Part shown: one piece after another, positions 4,539 to 58,157 of the stretch | How positions within the stretch are numbered: position 1 is the first letter of the stretch | Layout of the letters: each line of letters begins with the position of its first letter | DNA from: Nitrosopumilus sp. | Lineage (GTDB): Archaea > Thermoproteota > Nitrososphaeria > Nitrososphaerales > Nitrosopumilaceae | Direction of reading: 5' to 3' | Assembly (NCBI GenBank): GCA_965238275.1 | Contig: OZ250186.1 | Span: 704,001-768,000, forward strand | DNA length: 64,000 nucleotides | Translations under genes and position numbers: made by a program | The notes under the pieces: generated by a model | The model's input: only the letters and a program-made list of their open reading frames with translations | The model's database searches: none | What the model was told of the DNA's origin: nothing

Positions 4539-4706
4539 GTAAATTTCTAGCGTGTCTTCATCAAACCTTGTTTAAAATCTTTGGTAATTTTGGCTCTGTT
4601 CAATTATGGTGATCTGTAGCATTTGCTGTTCAAAAGAGGCATTCCTAAAATCTCGGAACGATTCTGGATTTTGCAGTCACTGCGACGATGCTTATGATTG
4701 CGACAG

Positions 4707-6147
4707 CTATAGCGGCGAGCGAAAGTTCGTGCAAACAGATCTCTCTGTAGCGTGTCCTGATGCTCTTTCCGGCGCTCTGTCAGACCTTCCAATATTGTCG
4801 TCGTTGTCGGGTCCAAGCCGACCTGTCGAATTGTTCATTCCAGAACCATCCGATCCGTGATCCTCGCGCCTTGTGACGACCTCGACACCCGCAATGGTGT
4901 CTCCACGATTCCCGTGGGCTTGGCCGCCAGTCTCCTCCGTATGGAGACAGTCATTATCCAGAATGTTTTTTGCCGCGTTCTTGTCGGCATGGTGGCACCA
5001 TCCGCATGAGACGCAGACAAATGATTCGCCGTTCCTGGATTTCTTGTCCACTACCCCGCAGGCAGCGCATCTCTGGCTTGTATGTGCGTGTTCCACGCGT
5101 CTTGAAATTCCGCCTTTCTTTTTCATCTGCCATTCAACCTGGCTCCGAAACTCGCCCATTCTGGAATAGGCCATCTCGCGGTTCAACCCCGTCTTTGAAG
5201 CGGCCCCGTTGGATCTCCTCATCCTGGTCAAATCCAGGTCTTCCAAGAACAATACGGACAGTCCTTTTGTTATCCGCCTGGCAATGTCGGCCTCGTTGTG
5301 TTTTTGCCTGTTTGATATCTTTTTCAATTCATGCGTTATCCTGCGGCCGATCTCTTTCCATCTTCTGGAGCCTGGCTGGCATCTTGATCTAAATGATTTC
5401 AGCTGATCAATCCTGTCGCCGTCATGCCTCTTGCAGCCTCCGGGGACACTGCAGTTTTTCATTCCCGTCCTCGTCTGCGACTGCCGCAAGGTGCCTGACT
5501 CCAAGATCCAGCCCTGCCTTGCATCCGCGGCCACCGCCTGTCGCAGGTTCGGGGTCTGGGACTTCTATCTGCAAATGCAGTTTGAATTCGCGATCACCAT
5601 CCTTGGTCTTACGCGTGACCTTGCCTGTGGTGTCAATCATCTGGAATGACACGAGCCTGCCTTCCGGAGCCTTCGTGCGTGGCCTTGCTTCCCCGAGTCC
5701 GGGCAGAAATACGGTGCCGTCGTCCCGCAGTTTTGGCTTTGCGCGTGAATTCAGCGAGCGCAGCCTGGTTGTTTTCCTGCCGCGCCTCATCAGGCTGGAC
5801 GGCTCGGTCCACCGATTGTGCTTGTACGTCTTCTTTTTCCCCAGCTTGATCTGTCTCTTGCGCCAGATGCGCTTGTTGTGCTTGAGCCGGTTTGCCTTGC
5901 GGAATTTGACTGCCGCCTGGAAAGCCTGTTTTGAGGCGGCCTCATGCATGTGGACGCTGCTGGCCAGGTTGAATTCCCTGCGCCATCCTGTTATCAGGTT
6001 GTTGACATCAAACTGTGTGATCCGTGAGTGTGCAAGTTTCATCATGATTGTCATGTCGTAAATGATGTCTGTTTCCCGGGAGCATTTCACGATCTTGCGT
6101 GACAGTTCCCGAGATTGTGTTATCTTGATGATTTTACTGACAATCAT
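4707..6147 (-). pseudogene. tnpB: TnpB RNA-guided endonuclease, frameshifted near 5455
   Basis: ORF 5422-6147 ends with RuvC-I (GLDLGVRHLA). ORF 4707-5534 carries RuvC-II (LEDLDL), a zinc finger (TSQRCAAC...CVSC) and RuvC-III (HADKNAAKNI). Confidence 0.9.
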
Positions 6148-6215
6148 ACCTGTAGTTGGGATTTATTTTCTTAAAAAGGATCTCAAAAAATTGCACGAAC
6201 TTTCGCTTTTCACTA
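4710..6215 (-). mobile_element. TnpB-only element with TIRs and TA target-site duplication (IS630/Tc1-like ends)
   Basis: Left end TAGCGGCGAGCGAAAGTTCGTGCAA versus reverse complement of right end TAGTGAAAAGCGAAAGTTCGTGCAA. Flanked by TA at 4708-4709 and 6216-6217. Removing it restores CTAG and the host reading frame. Confidence 0.88.
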
Positions 6216-6370
6216 TAGTACCATCATGGCAATCGTGCAGAACTCAAGTACGACGTTTTCCCATGCGACTTCCTCGCCAATTGGTCCTGTGAACTCGGTA
6301 TCTGGGAGACCGAAACCGTTGAAGGTAACAGTAACCTCTACCGGATCTGCGGAGGCCAGCGGTGCTGTGG

Positions 6371-6570
6371 GGCTCTGGTAAATTCTAGTGGGCTGATCAC
6401 CAAAATTTACCACCAAGGTGCTAGGATGACTTGTCTCACTTTTGAACAGGCCCGTAGAAGGTACCACACTTTTGAACACCGTGATGAAACATGGTAAGAT
6501 TGAATCTGGAGAAGATCCAAAAACACACTTTTGAAGTGAACGGCAGAGATCACCAGAATTTAACAGAGCC
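6371..6570. mobile_element. 200-bp MITE copy 1 (IS6-like GGCTCTG ends)
   Basis: Ends GGCTCTGGTAAATTCTAGTG and CACCAGAATTTAACAGAGCC are inverted repeats. Nearly identical copy at 9117-9316. Abruptly truncates the PEFG gene. Confidence 0.75.
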
Positions 6571-7215
6571 TACGGGACCGCGTTTGCCTGGATGGGACTC
6601 GTGCCACTGCGACGTGTTTTGCGCAGTCTTTGTACCTGCTGCGAATGGTCATACACGTTGCTCCGACCATGCAAAAAATTCGGGCAGTAATCATGAAGAA
6701 TCAGCATTTATCCCTTGATCCATGCTCATCGATACTCTTACCCTTCGATGTATTCTTGGCTGATTACTGCCTTGATTAGTTAACGTCGTTGTGAAATAAA
6801 AGTATATTTTAGGAATAGTGAACGCCTGTTTGATTTTTCCATTGTTTCTGAATGATTCAAAAGCGGGGGGAGGCTGTTGGAAATTATGGGTCCCTTCCGT
6901 ACCCTGCATGCGTGCGGTTCGGGTCCGGCTTGGCGATCCAGAAGCGGGGATTGGGAAGTCAAGTCAGTTCGCCTGGCTGCGATTCTGACTGCGGAGTTTC
7001 AGCCGCAATCGGATCCGGCACAGTACGCAAAAACCTGACTGGGTAGGCGTTCACGGTCACTGCGATGTGACAGCTCTGGGGCAGGGGCATCTGATATCTG
7101 CCAGGAGGCAGGACTGCCGGTGGCAGCTGCCTTGAAACGAATGCAGGCAGTTCGGGAAAATTCCAAATCCGAAGGGGCGTCAAATCATTTAATGTATGAA
7201 CGCCACTAAAAAATA

Positions 7216-24476: not shown

Positions 24477-26710
24477 GTAAGAGGTCGCCTTTGCGAAGCG
24501 ATTTCGTGCCTGATCTGCCCCGATTAATTACCAACTGAGCTACGTTTTGGGCCGTAAATGCCCATTTGATTGGCATTATTCAGGATTTTTTCCGGGCGGG
24601 GTGAGGTTCGACTGAGCTGCGTTTTGGCCGATTCGGTGATCGGACTTGCGAAGTGGACCTTTTTTGGTGCTGCCGGGGCGGTGCGTTGTGCCCGAATCTG
24701 GCGGAGGGCCGGTACGGCGGCCTGATACGTGTCAGGCAACCGGTGCGACGGGAGTCGCGCAGGACATGCAGGGCAGCCATGGATGGATTTTGCAGGATTT
24801 ATGCAGTTGTTGCTGCCGCTGCTGCTGTTGCCGGTATCCTTTCGACGATACCTCGCATGTAGTCTACCAAAAAGTCGTGCGGGTTGACGCCGCGCATCCT
24901 GCACGTCTCGCGGATGCTGGCCAGGACGGCGTGGTTGTATGCGCCGGCAAGGCTCTTGCTGCCGCCTGAGACATTCCGGGATGCGACGCTGGGCCGCAGG
25001 GGGCGCTCGGCGTCGTTGTTATGGCACTTTGTGTTGAGGCGGATGAATGGGAACAGGTGGGTGATCTCGCGCCGCAGCCGCTTGACAAACCGCTTGCAGT
25101 GGGGTTCGGTGTAGCTGCCAGACATCAGGCGCCTCATCCGGGCCAGGAGGTTGCGCACCTTGAGGTTTCGCGCGGCCTTGTCGTCGTTTGGGTTGAGTCC
25201 CTTCTCTGCGTGCCAGGAATCGATGATTATCCCCTTTAGGGCCTTAGCAAACTTTTTGAATTCGGGTCCCGGGTTTTTCATGGTCAGGGTGCGGATGATC
25301 TCGCGGAGGTAGTGGTAGTGGCACTTTTGGTGGGTCCTGCCGATGCGGTTCCACGCAGCGTGTGAATCAGAGGTGACGTGGCCTGCGTACCCTCCAAGCA
25401 GGGTCTCCAGCACGTCTCCTCCCCGGCGCTTGTCCACGTAAAAGACAGTCGAGTCGGAGCCGACTAGTATCCACAGCCAGTACAGCATCCCGGCTACCCT
25501 CCAGCTGGTCTCGTCCCCGAAGACATGCTCTGAGAAGAATATCTCCTCGAGCATCTCCTCGTAGAGCGGGTGGAGGGATCCGGTCACGGCATCCACGTGG
25601 CCGATGACAGTCGACTTTGCAAGGTTTGTGTGGTGGATTATGTTGATCAGCTTGCGGATGATTTCGTAGGGAATGCCGTACATCCTCATCGTCGTCTCAA
25701 GGCACGTCAGGCTGGCGCCGAACCGTCCCCCGGGGACGATCCCTGGGATCTCGGGGGCAAACTGCCTGCCGCATTCCCTGCAGTACCTGCGAATAATGGT
25801 ATACTGGATGCCGGTCAGCTTCCCGTCGATAATCTCCTCGACTACCCGGATGGTCACCTCGGTGGGCTCCTTCGAGAGGGCGTGGCCGTGCGGACAGGCT
25901 TGCATGTCGACTAGCTTTTTTTCGGATATCGGGGGAGGATCACGGCCTGTTCGCAGGCAGACGACCTTCCTGAACGGATTCGGCGCAGGCCCGGGCGACT
26001 CTTGGAGCCGCTTCTTGGAGCGGTGAGTCTTGATGTCCAGGTTCTCGGCTGCCAGCGCCGAGTTGGCCGCGTGCGCCTCTTTTAGCTGAGAGGCATGCTC
26101 TGATGCCTGCCGTTCCAGGCGGGCTATCCTGTCCATGACTGCCTGCGAGACGTCGCATCCCTGCAGCAGGGCGGCGTTTTCTGCACGCAGTTTCTCTACC
26201 TCTGTCCTCAAATTCTCTATCTCTGAGTCCTTTTGTTCTATCTCGACGTCCTTTTGCACGCTCTCTTCTTCCAGCAGTTTGATCCGGGCATCCATCTCCG
26301 TCAGCATCACGCGATCCTCGGAGAAGGCCTCTGCCTCCTCCTTCAGCTGCTCGACGTCTTTTCTCAGCGCCATGCTCTCCTCGTCCTTGGATTTGAGCAT
26401 GTCAAGGACGGATTCGAAGAGAGACTTGGTGTCGGTTACGGAGTTCCAGTCAATCTTTTCCAGGTCGATTACAGGCACCATGCCATAACACAGGAAGGCA
26501 TGATCCATAAAGATTTTGGACACGCAGCGTCTGCCGGAAAATACGGTGCAAAATATCCTGCAGGAAATGCCTTGATCTGAAGACCACCATGTTGCAGACC
26601 ATGCTGATAACGTGCAATTAATCGGGTATTTATGGCCGAAAACGTAGCTCAGTTGGTAATTAATCGGGTCAGATCAGGCACAAAATCGCTTCGCAAAGGC
26701 GACCTCTTAC
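24477..26710 (-). mobile_element. IS66-family element (single-ORF, ISBst12-like)
   Basis: GTAA...TTAC ends; 87-bp TIRs with 5 mismatches; 8-bp TSD AGAAACTT at 24469-24476 and 26711-26718. Confidence 0.93.
24799..26523 (-). CDS. IS66 transposase (TnpC-like DDE)
   Basis: Coiled coil, Zn finger, GDETSWRV, TSD, QKCHYHYLRE, NNDAERPLRP. Confidence 0.92.
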   Translation of the reverse strand: MSKIFMDHAFLCYGMVPVIDLEKIDWNSVTDTKSLFESVLDMLKSKDEESMALRKDVEQLKEEAEAFSEDRVMLTEMDARIKLLEEESVQKDVEIEQKDSEIENLRTEVEKLRAENAALLQGCDVSQAVMDRIARLERQASEHASQLKEAHAANSALAAENLDIKTHRSKKRLQESPGPAPNPFRKVVCLRTGRDPPPISEKKLVDMQACPHGHALSKEPTEVTIRVVEEIIDGKLTGIQYTIIRRYCRECGRQFAPEIPGIVPGGRFGASLTCLETTMRMYGIPYEIIRKLINIIHHTNLAKSTVIGHVDAVTGSLHPLYEEMLEEIFFSEHVFGDETSWRVAGMLYWLWILVGSDSTVFYVDKRRGGDVLETLLGGYAGHVTSDSHAAWNRIGRTHQKCHYHYLREIIRTLTMKNPGPEFKKFAKALKGIIIDSWHAEKGLNPNDDKAARNLKVRNLLARMRRLMSGSYTEPHCKRFVKRLRREITHLFPFIRLNTKCHNNDAERPLRPSVASRNVSGGSKSLAGAYNHAVLASIRETCRMRGVNPHDFLVDYMRGIVERIPATAAAAATTA

Positions 26711-27365: not shown

Positions 27366-27499
27366 ACGTCATGTAAGATTTTTCTTACTTATAAATACGG
27401 TCTGGCGTGCCGGGCACAGCTTCGTGCATGTGGCATGCACCAGTCAAGTCAAATTCCCTGCACCAGCCAGTTATCAGGTTGTTGACGTCAAACTGCGTG

Positions 27500-28633
27500 T
27501 GTGGAATACGAAAAGTAGTTCCTCCCTTACTCCACATGATACTCCTCCCCTGTCTGCTCATCTATTACTATCTCTCCTTTTGGTGGCATCTTGCGCACAA
27601 ACGCCTGGGCTGGCGTCTCCTCCCCGTCAGGGCCAAGTGACATGTGCGGTCTGTCGTAATTGTACCACTGCATGAAGAGGTCCACCGGGTCGCTCTTGCG
27701 CATCATTATCGCCTCAAATTCGGGCAGCTTCCGCTGGATCTCCCCGTGCAGCCTCTCCAGCTTGCCGTTGGTCTGAGGATGCCTCACGCCTGCCAGGATC
27801 TGCTTGATGCCAAGCTCTGCCAGTCTCTTTTCAAACTCGGATGCGCCCTTTTTCTTTGCCTCTGATGCGGTGGCGTAGAACTGGGATCCGCGGTCAGTCA
27901 TTATGGATGCAGGCTTGCCGTGGTTCCTTATCGCCTCGTCCAATACCGACAGGGCGTTTTCTGCAGTTGCACGCTCAAACGTGCCGTACGCAGTCACGAA
28001 CCGCGAGGCATCGTCCTCGTAGCACAGGAACCACCTGCCGTCATCAAGCAGCTTGTAGTCGGTGTGCCACATCGAGTTGGAATAGGTGCGCTCAAAGCGG
28101 ATCCACTTGCGGCGCTTGCTCTTGTTGGGCTGTCTGGCAGCCAGATCCTCGTCACGCAATACCATGTGTATGCGGTTGTATGGAATATTTATTCCGGTGA
28201 CGTCCCTTATGCGCCCGTGCAGGCGCACGGCCCCGACGTGGTCGTTGCCCTTGGCGCACAGTACCGCGGAGTGTTCCTTCCTGCCGGGAAGGCCGCATGC
28301 GGGCCTGCCCATGTGCATCGGATACGCCACGCTGCTGCGTTCCTGTCCCTTGTACCTGGAATACAGCTTCCTTATCCACCGCGGCGACACACCCATTGCC
28401 TTGGAGATGCATAAATTGGTGGATCCCTTGTCCCTCTCCGAAAGTATCCACCTTACCTTCGATTCGTCCAGCTTTTTCATGATGCGTACTCTCCGTGTTC
28501 CTATATGCCGCCACCGATTGGAGTACATCGTTCTTGCCCACACACCCTTGCTTCCACTCAACACCAAGCTGATCTTGCTTCCAAACACGCCGGCTCCATT
28601 GGGTAGGGGAGGAACTACTTTTTGTACAACGTA
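27500..28633 (-). mobile_element. IS481-family element
   Basis: Inverted ends with core AAAAGTAGTTCCTCCC; 15-bp TSD ACGTCAAACTGCGTG at 27485-27499 and 28634-28648. Confidence 0.9.
27527..28588 (-). CDS. IS481-family DDE transposase (rve core); true start may be near 28483
   Basis: WHTDYK, DDASRF, MTDRGSQF, HPQTNGKLER, YNYDRPHMSL. Confidence 0.92.
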   Translation of the reverse strand: MFGSKISLVLSGSKGVWARTMYSNRWRHIGTRRVRIMKKLDESKVRWILSERDKGSTNLCISKAMGVSPRWIRKLYSRYKGQERSSVAYPMHMGRPACGLPGRKEHSAVLCAKGNDHVGAVRLHGRIRDVTGINIPYNRIHMVLRDEDLAARQPNKSKRRKWIRFERTYSNSMWHTDYKLLDDGRWFLCYEDDASRFVTAYGTFERATAENALSVLDEAIRNHGKPASIMTDRGSQFYATASEAKKKGASEFEKRLAELGIKQILAGVRHPQTNGKLERLHGEIQRKLPEFEAIMMRKSDPVDLFMQWYNYDRPHMSLGPDGEETPAQAFVRKMPPKGEIVIDEQTGEEYHVE

Positions 28634-28865
28634 ACGTCAAACTGCGTGATCCTTGGATGTGCAAGTTTCATCATGATCGTCATGTCGTAAACAATATCTG
28701 TTTCCCGGGAGCACTTCACGATCCTGCGTGACAGTTCCTGTGATTGTGTTATGCTGATGCTTTTGCTGACAATCATGTATACGAACAGAACTTGTTTTCT
28801 TAAAAAAGGACGCATTAATTGCAGGAACATACTCTTAACTATAGTTTCAAACAGAATGAGATCTG

Positions 28866-56989: not shown

Positions 56990-58157
56990 GAGGTTGGTGC
57001 ATAATTCTGATGTGTCCTAACATGCATATTTCTCGCCACGCTTTCACGGGCGGGGTCGGATGCAAACGGGTCGGATTATCAGGCGCACTCCGTGCAAGCC
57101 GAGCCGCCGTAGGACGGTATCGGTATATTTAGCCGGCAGGCACACTCAAACCGGTTGAGGACCCGGATGTTCCATGAGATTGCCCTTCCCTTGGCAAACC
57201 GGCGCCGATTGTCTTCGCGCACGAACCTGCAGTGAAGCTGGTGCCGCCGGCTCTCCTCGGCCCCGAAGATGCCTTCTATCAGGGCTCTTGTCTTGTACTC
57301 GTATGGGTCAAACAGTCCGGCCGCCTTCTTTCGGCTGGGCTTGCCCCTGCTGACGGCGTCTTTTCTCTGCTTGATGTTGGGCACCATGCCCATCCAGAAC
57401 AGCTCCTCGAAGTTGTAGTCGGCGTCATACCCGCGGTCCGCATCAAAGACGCTCCCCGAAAAGTCATACCCGCGGCGCCTGATCTCGGCCAGCATGACTG
57501 GCAGCATCGTGACGTCGTTGACGTTACCCGGCGTGGTAAACGTGGCCAGCACAATCTGTAGTCCCAGGATGGCCGTTATGTGGTATTTCCAGTAGGTTTT
57601 TTGACGCATCTCGACGAAGTCACGCTCCTTTTTGTAGGGTTTTTCGATGTTTTCGTACCTGGTAGTCTCCACCCCACTGCTGTCTGCGCCCAGCGGGCCA
57701 GTCGCGCCGGCCGCCTCGGCGATGCAGCGGCGGGCAGTCTCGGCCAGTATCAGGTCCATCCAGTCCGGCGGAATGGTCTGGAGGTGCCTGACCATCGTGG
57801 TGTGGTCCGGAACCGGCTCGTCGTCCCAGGGAGTCCGCATGTCGCGCAGGTCTGATTCGATCCTGCGGAAGGTGTTGTTGTAGGCCATCATCAGCAGGCA
57901 GGCAAAATCCATCTTGTCCTTGGAGTGGATCCTGGGACGGCCCCTGTTGCCGTTTTCGGGGCGCGGGCAGGGGTTCTCTCGAATCATTTCAATCAGCGTC
58001 CTCCTCAGGTGGGATGCCTCGACTTCGTTTGCAAGTTCGTAGTACTGCCAGTATCTTTCCCGTCGGTTGTGTTTGATCATTACCGCGTGCGGGCGATCAT
58101 GGGATCATTGAATGTATCGGACGAGATTAGCAGCCAAAGGATTTACGCACCAACCTC
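56990..58157 (-). mobile_element. IS5-family element
   Basis: TIR GAGGTTGGTGC(A/G)TAA; 9-bp TSD CCTGTTATG at 56981-56989 and 58158-58166. Confidence 0.9.
57079..58080 (-). CDS. IS5-family DDE transposase
   Basis: PDHTT, ADSSG, KYH, DADRGYD, YKTRALIEGIF. Confidence 0.9.
   Translation of the reverse strand: MIKHNRRERYWQYYELANEVEASHLRRTLIEMIRENPCPRPENGNRGRPRIHSKDKMDFACLLMMAYNNTFRRIESDLRDMRTPWDDEPVPDHTTMVRHLQTIPPDWMDLILAETARRCIAEAAGATGPLGADSSGVETTRYENIEKPYKKERDFVEMRQKTYWKYHITAILGLQIVLATFTTPGNVNDVTMLPVMLAEIRRRGYDFSGSVFDADRGYDADYNFEELFWMGMVPNIKQRKDAVSRGKPSRKKAAGLFDPYEYKTRALIEGIFGAEESRRHQLHCRFVREDNRRRFAKGRAISWNIRVLNRFECACRLNIPIPSYGGSACTECA

Follow-up and report, generated by a model that had tools for sequence, protein, structure and literature searches.

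The window analysed here is a stretch of 64,000 nucleotides from Nitrosopumilus sp. (contig OZ250186.1, positions 704,001 to 768,000). Between its positions 4710 and 6215 it contains an insertion best explained as a non-autonomous IS630-type cut-and-paste element, in which a module made of the nuclease TnpB and its predicted guide RNA (omegaRNA) travels as cargo in place of the transposase gene. We give this reading a probability of roughly 78%. It relies on the ends of the insert and the duplicated target dinucleotide, on a family of related copies with homologous ends, and on the presence of the same type of end in a decayed IS630-family transposase element.

The insert has 1506 bp (4710-6215) and carries terminal inverted repeats (TIRs) of 25 bp at both ends. 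When both arms are compared, they consist of TAG, five variable bases (1 of 5 identical) and a core identical at 17 of 17 positions, which makes 21 of 25 overall. The 17-mer occurs exactly twice in the 64 kb with up to three mismatches tolerated, for a chance expectation of 0.09, and two or more occurrences were found in none of 100 shuffles. In a repeat search no other inverted repeat of the region was as long as this pair (28 nt with the C-TA/TA-G, 86% complementary). Immediately outside each TIR there is a dinucleotide TA. A preliminary description of this DNA, made from its letters only, had reported the insert, its TIRs and the flanking TA, and all of them are confirmed by the sequence, the shuffle test and the repeat search. 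TA is the target-site duplication (TSD) of IS630 elements (PMC13565253, excerpts). Two features of the IS630 family, TIRs and a TA duplication, are thus found in the insert and in its related copies. The DDE_3-type transposase with an N-terminal helix-turn-helix (HTH) is absent, the insert encoding tnpB only, and therefore it is not an autonomous member of the family. The parts that define the insertion are the following:

4708-4709, either strand: TA, copy of the target-site duplication at the right end (3' side of tnpB); TA is found at 19 of 19 right ends examined
4710-4734, minus strand: right-end TIR (3' side of tnpB), read through by the tnpB frame (...CTNFRSPL) and holding the last predicted omegaRNA hairpin (consensus helix 14); homologous TIRs exist in all related copies
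6191-6215, minus strand: left-end TIR (5' side of tnpB), identified by sequence, repeat search and related copies
6216-6217, either strand: TA, copy of the target-site duplication at the left end; TA is found at 18 of 18 left ends
6218, minus strand (G on the plus strand): flanking C directly 5' of the left TA, the putative base of a target-adjacent motif (TAM); all 18 complete copies have C here, as does the decayed second copy of the window

The insertion interrupts a small gene, which in the window is now split in two:

4645-4707, minus strand: C-terminal part of the host gene (membrane-anchor tail and stop codon), from the in-silico excision and the ortholog P0163
6216-6479, minus strand: N-terminal part of the host gene, from the list of open reading frames (ORFs), the excision and the ortholog P0163

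In-silico removal of 4710-6217 leaves CTAG and a single open frame on the minus strand, which has a C-terminal hydrophobic stretch followed by basic residues. The N-terminal half of this ORF, used as query, matched two proteins (P-numbers designate protein matches). P0163, encoded in another genome on a contig of 2,325,306 bp, has 104 amino acids, is 96% identical to the host protein and is uninterrupted at the junction (...AMMVLAVAIIS...). Judged by its sequence it is an empty-site allele at the protein level, and therefore the C and one TA belong to the target. Both the restoration of CTAG and of the reading frame (MMVL/AVAIIS), claimed in the preliminary description, and the empty-site allele whose search it had suggested were thus borne out, the former by scripted excision as well as by P0163, the latter by an allele free of insertion. 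The sorting motif of the host protein reads LEFG, a variant of PEFG, in P0163 and LEFC in the window. The earlier label of a PEFG-CTERM protein is plausible, although no NCBIfam model confirms it, since the N-terminal half of the gene had no match in that collection. The copy in the window is a dead element that knocked out the gene of a small membrane-anchored protein.

The only sizeable gene of the insert is tnpB, which runs on the minus strand from 6147 to 4710 in two frames (5422-6147 and 4707-5534):

5422-6147, minus strand: upstream frame of tnpB with the WED/REC region and RuvC-I, from ORFs and Pfam; a frameshift near 5445-5465 parts it from the rest
4710-5534, minus strand: downstream frame of tnpB with RuvC-II, zinc finger, RuvC-III and tail (Pfam Cas12f1-like_TNB, E=2.5e-16, and OrfB_IS605)
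6160-6179, minus strand: A/T-rich stretch resembling a TATA box some 13-35 nt before the ATG, putatively the archaeal promoter of tnpB; TTAAG/ATAAA stretches stand at the same place in related copies

The two pieces matched Pfam OrfB_IS605 with 32.3 bits (cut-off 30.5) and Cas12f1-like_TNB with 60 bits (cut-off 26.3). A read-through protein, built by reading CCCC as P at the frameshift, scored 122.4 bits with the NCBIfam model guided_TnpB (cut-off 100) and remained far under the cut-offs of the specific models, with 94.7 bits against 350 for IS607_TnpB and 59.6 against 425 for the IS200/IS605 TnpB model. In the protein alignment with intact relatives, the gene of the window is one residue short and shifts its frame between ...NEKL and PGGC..., which is consistent with a deletion of 2 nt, and from its sequence we consider this copy of tnpB dead. 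Of 8000 candidates scored in a word-indexed homology search, 134 were tnpB homologs. The matches P0001-P0024 make up a compact clade (185-1022 bits, 44-95% identity) and the hits beyond it are ordinary TnpBs with at most 96 bits. The contigs encoding the clade range from about 3.5 kb to 2.46 Mb, and seven of them are genome-sized (1.9-2.5 Mb). In an alignment of 18 sequences of the clade D214, D388, C360, C363, C378 and C381 are invariant and E302 is found in at least 90%; the window copy keeps the D/E/D of RuvC and the C4 zinc finger, spread over its two frames. That tnpB is the only gene of the insert and has canonical catalytic residues and a zinc finger, as had been noticed earlier, agrees with Pfam, NCBIfam and this alignment. 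The AlphaFold model of the intact relative P0001 has an overall pLDDT (predicted local distance difference test) of 71, with residues 1-403 mostly above 70. Its best matches in the PDB are 8h1j (ISDra2 TnpB, E=1e-16) and 8iaz (ISFba1 TnpB, E=5e-16), with TM-scores of just 0.31-0.48, and the PDB sequence search agrees with this assignment, so that the model indicates a TnpB/Cas12f fold for the clade. Curated models, catalytic residues and fold together identify the protein as a TnpB, and thereby as a predicted RNA-guided nuclease. In the tnpB core the proportion of variable sites at the three codon positions is 0.31/0.21/0.60 and 0.27/0.21/0.46, an excess at the third position and therefore a sign of purifying selection on the protein. 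A tblastn search of P0001 against plasmids gave 2013 records, all with less than 31% identity among the matches listed, and no information about a partner.

A scan of representative genomes by protein alignment with the TnpB found 17 loci, all in the chromosome of one Nitrosopumilus metagenome-assembled genome, OZ244137.1 (L-numbers designate its loci, with flanks). The flanks encode archaeal AmoA and CdvA and therefore the host is an ammonia-oxidising archaeon. This chromosome contains 18 complete elements of 1417-1496 bp (the 17 loci plus an extra degraded copy in L014) and, in L016, a right end only. All 18 complete elements have TIRs homologous to those of the window, made of TA(C/G), five bases and a core of the type CGCAAAAGTTCGTGCA, and TA stands beside every left end (18 of 18) and every right end (19 of 19). 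They belong to three subfamilies, whose DNA identity among one another and with the window copy is only 55-64%. Inside a subfamily the identity is mostly 92-99% (99.0% between L009 and the extra copy L014b, 98.0% between L005 and L015), with a few members at 75-87%, and an ORF of at least 449 codons is kept at 8 of the 17 loci. Divergent subfamilies with shared ends, together with near-identical members, indicate that tnpB and these ends have travelled together for long and have moved recently. The doubts raised in the preliminary description, that other copies might have different boundaries or that this tnpB might not co-occur with the TIRs elsewhere, have thus been dispelled: TIRs and TA were found in the 18 complete copies, in the lone right end and in five of the eight closest protein relatives, and no copy of this tnpB clade was seen without TIRs. 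The window has in addition a remnant of the same family:

27425-28846 (about 27425-27499 and 28634-28846), minus strand: second, decayed 5' fragment of the same element family; blastn identity to the first copy of 88% over 143 nt and 90% over 48 nt

The limits of gene and element are closely interlocked. The distance from the left TIR to the ATG is only about 43 nt, and this short region looks like a promoter. At the other side, the stop codon of the window tnpB is formed by the TA of the duplication and the flanking G, so that the earlier claim of a stop provided by the target site proved right for this copy. Actually, the subfamily of the window (P0001, P0003, P0004 and P0006) has a tnpB that lacks a stop of its own. 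The frame crosses the right TIR (window 4707-4760) and, depending on the insertion site, the protein ends at TA plus G or A or extends by up to about 40 residues into the flank. Among the closest protein relatives five of eight have the tail ...CTNF(R/C)SPL encoded by the TIR, and these five either stop directly or go on with Y (TA plus a pyrimidine) into unrelated sequence; therefore TA follows the TIR in those copies too.

The same 3' end is predicted to encode the guide RNA, which occupies, with its flank, the following positions:

4710-4948, minus strand: predicted omegaRNA scaffold, overlapping the 3' tail of tnpB and the right TIR (RNAalifold on 19 copies)
4688-4707, minus strand: predicted guide-encoding flank, the first ~20 nt past the TA of the right end; it would be the 3' part of the omegaRNA transcript, by analogy with the right-end element RNAs (reRNAs) of TnpB and Fanzor

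The last 300 nt of the 19 copies were aligned and RNAalifold gave a consensus with 69 pairs, 23 of them with compensatory changes. In this structure, which derives from the same alignment on which it was evaluated and is thereby somewhat favoured, 97.6% of the cells are paired, against 30.6-45.6% when the partners are slid by 1-3 columns; the covarying pairs are 23 against 3-8 after sliding, and the observed score was reached in 0 of 500 shuffles. A chance origin of the covariation is unlikely given the size of this gap and the many independent pair types (for example in helices 6, 7 and 11). The structured RNA starts directly behind the RuvC-III motif and takes in the right TIR, occupying the last ~240 nt of the element. 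Over this TnpB tail the variable sites by codon position are 0.21/0.22/0.21 and 0.16/0.10/0.14, with no excess at the third position, and the tail of P0001 (residues 404-494) has a pLDDT of about 28 and is predicted to be disordered. Both findings mark the tail as conserved at the RNA level, and we predict that the last ~240 nt are an omegaRNA. At the gathering score Rfam recognised in the window two tRNAs only and no omegaRNA family. The core of the TIR (window 4719-4728, for instance) is a small palindrome, CGAA-AG-TTCG in the window and GCAAAA-G-TTTTTGC in other copies, and is therefore able to form the last hairpin of the predicted RNA. The reRNAs of TnpB and Fanzor, according to the excerpts of PMC10711439, extend about 15 nt past the TSD and include TIR and TSD within the scaffold. 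By this analogy the guide of the window copy would be 4688-4707, minus strand.

The base before the left TA is C in the 18 complete copies and also in the decayed second copy of the window (19 of 19). After the right TA we found G in 8, A in 6, T in 4 and C in 1 of 19 cases, a distribution that differs from the C of the left side with p=1.3e-4 (Fisher). IS630 insertion sequences prefer CTAG as target. A symmetric preference of this kind with random orientation would give equal frequencies at both sides and therefore the asymmetry goes with the orientation of tnpB. In the empty site the guide match is preceded by C-TA, while at the right junction of the filled site A-TA stands before the same match. 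Our hypothesis, drawn from these sequences, is that the TAM contains C-TA, with the result that empty sites would be cut and the own element spared. This idea agrees with what is reported for Fanzors, whose TAM includes the 5' TSD (PMC13565253, excerpts). The single element of this TIR type that derives from a transposase and lacks tnpB has A and not C before its TA (n=1).

This last element is the link to a transposase. Searching with a degenerate TIR pattern gave one further site, L005:12494, with TA followed by a TIR of the same family (estimated chance expectation about 0.006 in the 570 kb searched). L005:12494-13045 is an element of roughly 550 bp, whose three frames behind the TIR together resemble an internally deleted and frameshifted IS630-family transposase. 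Its frames include a match to HTH_23 (E=1.3e-3) and a second piece matching DDE_3 (E=0.011), the latter also matching, at E=2.3e-4, positions 239-268 of the 299 in the NCBIfam model of IS630 transposases. A 119-residue piece of it, compared by phmmer with 1.84 billion proteins, gave 42 matches; nine were analysed with Pfam, of which eight contained DDE_3 and one, P0122, had no family. P0131, a protein of 337 amino acids, has HTH_29/32/28/23/33 and DDE_3, and in a tblastn search matches L005:12778-13013 (E=4.9e-15) and nothing else in 285 kb of locus DNA. This transposase has 247 relatives at E<=1e-10. Among the 120 of them listed, there are proteins from contigs of 2,034,521, 2,459,686, 2,325,306 and 1,888,311 bp, sizes equal to those of four of the seven large (at least 1.8 Mb) contigs with the TnpB clade. 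Furthermore, the C-termini of the transposases resemble the TIRs in translation. The three TIR cores of the tnpB elements, TGCACGAACTTT, TGCAAAAACTTT and TGCAGAAACTTT, translate to CTNF, CKNF and CRNF, and these exact endings close 4, 5 and 6 transposases respectively. With the full-length relatives (n=91) C[TKR]N[FL] is the ending of 32 and x[TKRA]N[FLI] that of 71. On the simplest reading of these sequences, right TIRs of the same TIR family would contain the ends of the transposase genes. Regarding the cognate IS630 transposase with the same TIR, which the preliminary description had proposed to look for, the search thus yielded the decayed fragment and not an intact copy.

Some side observations touch on these transposases. 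P0127 (129 amino acids) and P0122 (189 amino acids), both of other origin, resemble translated deletion derivatives of this sort, and the type of L005:12494-13045 may itself be a spreading family similar to miniature inverted-repeat transposable elements (MITEs). P0164, from a contig of 21,400 bp, the same size as that of P0131, is a chimeric ORF. Its IS630 HTH N-terminus (62% identical to P0131) passes directly into sequence 97% identical to what precedes the interrupted host gene in the window (about 6480-6575, minus strand), and the junction coincides with, or adjoins, the TA of a GTAG there. Therefore IS630 elements are present in close relatives of the window.

Several results weigh against the reading as an IS630-type element with a TnpB-omegaRNA module as cargo. 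The tnpB of the window is itself broken by the frameshift. By Pfam there is no IS630-type transposase in the 39 ORFs of the 64-kb window or in the 147 flank ORFs of the 17 loci, where the only transposases were IS66, rve and DDE_Tnp_1, together with one unrelated TnpB. The sole transposase-bearing element with this TIR type is internally deleted and frameshifted, its right end is decayed, and none of its three profile matches reaches the curated cut-off; at the DNA level, an intact IS630 copy with these TIRs was not encountered. The co-occurrence of transposase and TnpB is deduced from equal contig sizes, a proxy, and the other three of the seven large TnpB-clade contigs are absent among the 120 listed of the 247 P0131 relatives. 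A scan of 185,579 representative genomes gave no match to the exact TIR pattern of the window, TAG-N5-AGCRAAAGTTCGTGCAA. Folded as a single sequence, the RNA did no better than shuffles (z=-1.11, 26/200). Finally, G is also enriched at the right side (8/19) and the C bias could stem from a one-sided preference of the transposase. The proposal of the preliminary description, a non-autonomous IS630-like element with a captured TnpB, stands as far as the ends, the TA and the TIR shared with a decayed transposase are concerned, while its mobilisation in trans is an inference.

Other explanations of the ends fare much worse. Most prokaryotic tnpB genes reside in IS200/IS605 or IS607 elements, as stated in the excerpts of PMC13565253, and the best specific NCBIfam model for this gene is IS607_TnpB with its 94.7 bits, though far under the cut-off of 350. 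From there it could be argued that an ordinary tnpB element of either type is nested in an unrelated TIR-bearing MITE. We rejected this idea and give it a negligible probability, because homologous TIRs and TA are kept across divergent subfamilies and there is no room for inner ends. The gap between left TIR and ATG is about 43 nt, and at the opposite side the ORF or its stop (in which case the stop comes six bases earlier) and the structured RNA abut the right TIR, so that inner IS605 or IS607 ends are excluded. The TIRs also keep a constant distance from tnpB in 18 of 18 copies of three subfamilies only 55-64% identical, this tnpB clade is never seen without them, and neither a Y1 transposase nor a serine recombinase is found in the 147 flank ORFs. 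A serine recombinase of IS607 type might instead move the element, the TA being then the 2-bp crossover dinucleotide and not a duplication made by a DDE transposase. IS607 elements are in fact flanked by a conserved dinucleotide (GG) and excise without scar, and IS607_TnpB scores above IS200_TnpB (94.7 vs 59.6 bits). These elements are, however, described as devoid of TIRs (both points on IS607 from the excerpts of PMC13565253), while here there is an identical, inverted core of 17 bp with ends TAG...CTA and TA outside. The same TIR type stands on a fragment of an IS630-family DDE transposase, and no resolvase domain is present in the flank ORFs or the window. This model was also rejected, and we regard it as very improbable. 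The ends could belong to another DDE family with a duplication of 2-3 bp, such as the groups ISL2 or IS1031 of the IS5 family. ISL2, IS630 and IS1031 are all listed as DDE partners of TnpB in the excerpts of PMC13565253, and the window contains a DDE_Tnp_1 transposase at 57082-58080. Nevertheless, the only transposase remnant behind this TIR type is IS630-like (DDE_3, HTH_23, NCBIfam IS630), the C-termini of the IS630 transposase clade correspond to the TIR core in translation, and the duplication is TA in every copy examined, all of which makes this possibility highly unlikely.

A different objection accepts the IS630-type element and denies TnpB any role in its maintenance, the C reflecting the CTAG preference of the transposase or some asymmetry of the ends. 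The enrichment of G after the right TA (8/19) would fit, as would the frequency of broken genes, tnpB being damaged in about half of the copies (9 of the 17 loci have no ORF of at least 449 codons, and the copy of the window is frameshifted). Against this, 18/18 C versus 8/19 G (p=1.3e-4) is unexpected for a symmetric preference with random orientation, the third-position excess in the core of tnpB (0.60 vs 0.31 and 0.21) speaks for purifying selection on the protein, the catalytic residues are invariant and the RNA has 23 covarying pairs. The tnpB-less element derived from a transposase, with A before TA (n=1), points in the same direction. We consider this alternative unlikely, albeit one to be taken seriously.

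For the IS630-type element with a TnpB-omegaRNA module as cargo we propose the following course. An IS630-family DDE transposase encoded elsewhere in the genome would bind the TIRs and move the element in trans. The omegaRNA would be transcribed out of the right end and take its guide from the flank past the TA. TnpB with this guide would cut the empty site at a TAM formed by the flanking C and the TA, and repair from the filled copy would restore the element. The filled site reads ATA and not CTA before the guide match, which would shield the element from its own nuclease. A more far-reaching view, which we hold tentatively and somewhat short of even odds, is that the family is an old and independent archaeal counterpart of Fanzor1. 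An IS630 element of ammonia-oxidising archaea would have had its transposase gene supplanted by a TnpB-omegaRNA module, and module and borrowed ends would since have evolved together. The last hairpin of the guide-RNA scaffold would have arisen from the right TIR, TA with one flanking C would have become the TAM, and the nuclease would distinguish the CTA of an empty site from the ATA at its own right junction. One subfamily would have a nuclease gene that lost its own stop and ends where the target supplies one. Each TIR variant (cores CTNF, CKNF and CRNF) might have its own transposase subfamily, with the matching tetrapeptide at the C-terminus.

Regarding other features of the window and the loci, the decayed second copy is split by an rve-type insertion sequence (IS) at about 27500-28633 (rve Pfam match 27530-28588), with 14 identical bases (CGTCAAACTGCGTG) on both sides of it. 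The left TIR of this copy is decayed, yet it ends with CTA-TA, C being outside. An IS66-family DDE lies at 24802-26523, and the region of about 24.8-28.8 kb is a nest of insertion sequences; the DDE_Tnp_1 transposase at 57082-58080 was mentioned above. In OZ244137.1, L006:3137-4519 is another IS66-family DDE beside a decayed right-end/omegaRNA fragment of roughly 80 nt (L006:4622-4702). At L006:5937-5945 a left TIR starts with CAG and not with TAG, and the tnpB ORF of that copy is intact. The left end of the degraded tnpB copy (L014:7726-9142, minus strand) and its flank are tandemly duplicated over about 162 bp at L014:9080-9310, and therefore the left TIR is present twice there. A different TnpB of 462 amino acids, about 28% identical to the clade, is encoded at L016:3491-4876, 1.2 kb from the truncated copy of the TIR family. 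The TIR pattern of the clade was not found around it, and it seems to have its own flanking inverted repeat (ATTATATACATTAGTAAA / TTTACTAATGTATATAAT).

TnpB-type nucleases are thought to help the scarless IS605 and IS607 transposons by re-cutting the emptied donor site. What benefit a TnpB may bring to a DDE transposon of the cut-and-paste type, which leaves a break in any case, is an unsettled question. For this question the lineage offers a compact natural system, with elements of about 1.5 kb, many copies and intact nuclease genes in relatives, and it supplies a guide-RNA model supported by covariation, a concrete prediction of the TAM (C-TA) and candidate partner transposases. It may also be a source of a small nuclease with a short TAM. 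It is also a prokaryotic parallel to the step from which the Fanzors of eukaryotes arose. Were the wider view of a counterpart of Fanzor1 true, the lineage would show how an RNA-guided homing nuclease can profit a prokaryotic cut-and-paste DDE transposon.

Our literature search found no paper that combines TnpB with Thaumarchaeota and a transposase. In the literature since 2021 on TnpB and IS630 the association is treated only in PMC10691335 and PMC13565253 as far as their excerpts go, a preprint of Meers et al. having used IS630 as negative control, and among the matches listed for ammonia-oxidising archaea or sponges IS630 is not mentioned. Altae-Tran et al. (2023) described six TnpB branches tied to DDE transposases, all with inverted terminal repeats (excerpts of PMC10691335). 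In their DDE-6 branch TnpB occurs with an IS630 transposase and a separate HTH protein between symmetrical ends, and they also found solo TnpBs between nearly identical ends, for which they proposed mobilisation in trans. The association of TnpB and DDE transposases is taken up again in a 2026 review, which calls the pairing rare in prokaryotes (excerpts of PMC13565253). The suggestion of the preliminary description that this might be an undescribed family can thus not be upheld, since both IS630-linked TnpBs with symmetrical ends and solo forms proposed to move in trans are already contained in the excerpts of PMC10691335. Like DDE-6 and the other DDE-linked TnpBs, the present one lies inside symmetrical inverted repeats with the 3' end of tnpB near the transposon end, and for solo forms within such ends mobilisation in trans was proposed there. 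In DDE-6 the transposase and the HTH protein are co-encoded, whereas here neither gene is found in any of the 19 copies; the comparison is one with the architecture described there, and the present clade is thaumarchaeal.

With Fanzor1, found in eukaryotes and their viruses in Tc1/mariner and other TIR transposons, the element shares a TnpB-type nuclease as sole cargo of a non-autonomous element with TIRs and TSD. It also resembles Fanzors, in the excerpts of PMC10711439, in that the guide-RNA scaffold encloses the TIR and probably also the TSD, which is proposed as part of the TAM. Unlike Fanzor1 it is archaeal and its TnpB has an ordinary size and a canonical D/E/D; the Fanzor2 of mimivirus is no closer to it in sequence or fold match than the TnpB of ISDra2. 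The IS1341 group, the tnpB-only members of IS200/IS605, is similar in having only tnpB, many copies and an omegaRNA that overlaps the 3' end of the gene. The absence of TIRs and TSD, the subterminal hairpins and the Y1 transposase that the excerpts of PMC13565253 give for IS200/IS605 are not seen here, with no Y1 in the 147 flank ORFs or the window. The IS630 family and its deletion derivatives have the same kind of TIRs, TA duplication and CTAG-like targets, and one deletion derivative with the same TIR type is that of L005:12494-13045. In contrast to them, the transposase gene is here replaced by tnpB and omegaRNA and the use of the target is one-sided (C-TA-N). Therefore, the kind of system is already known and the present element is a new archaeal member of it, to which it adds this lineage, a solo architecture in all 19 copies, an ORF without stop, a model of the RNA and the one-sided C.

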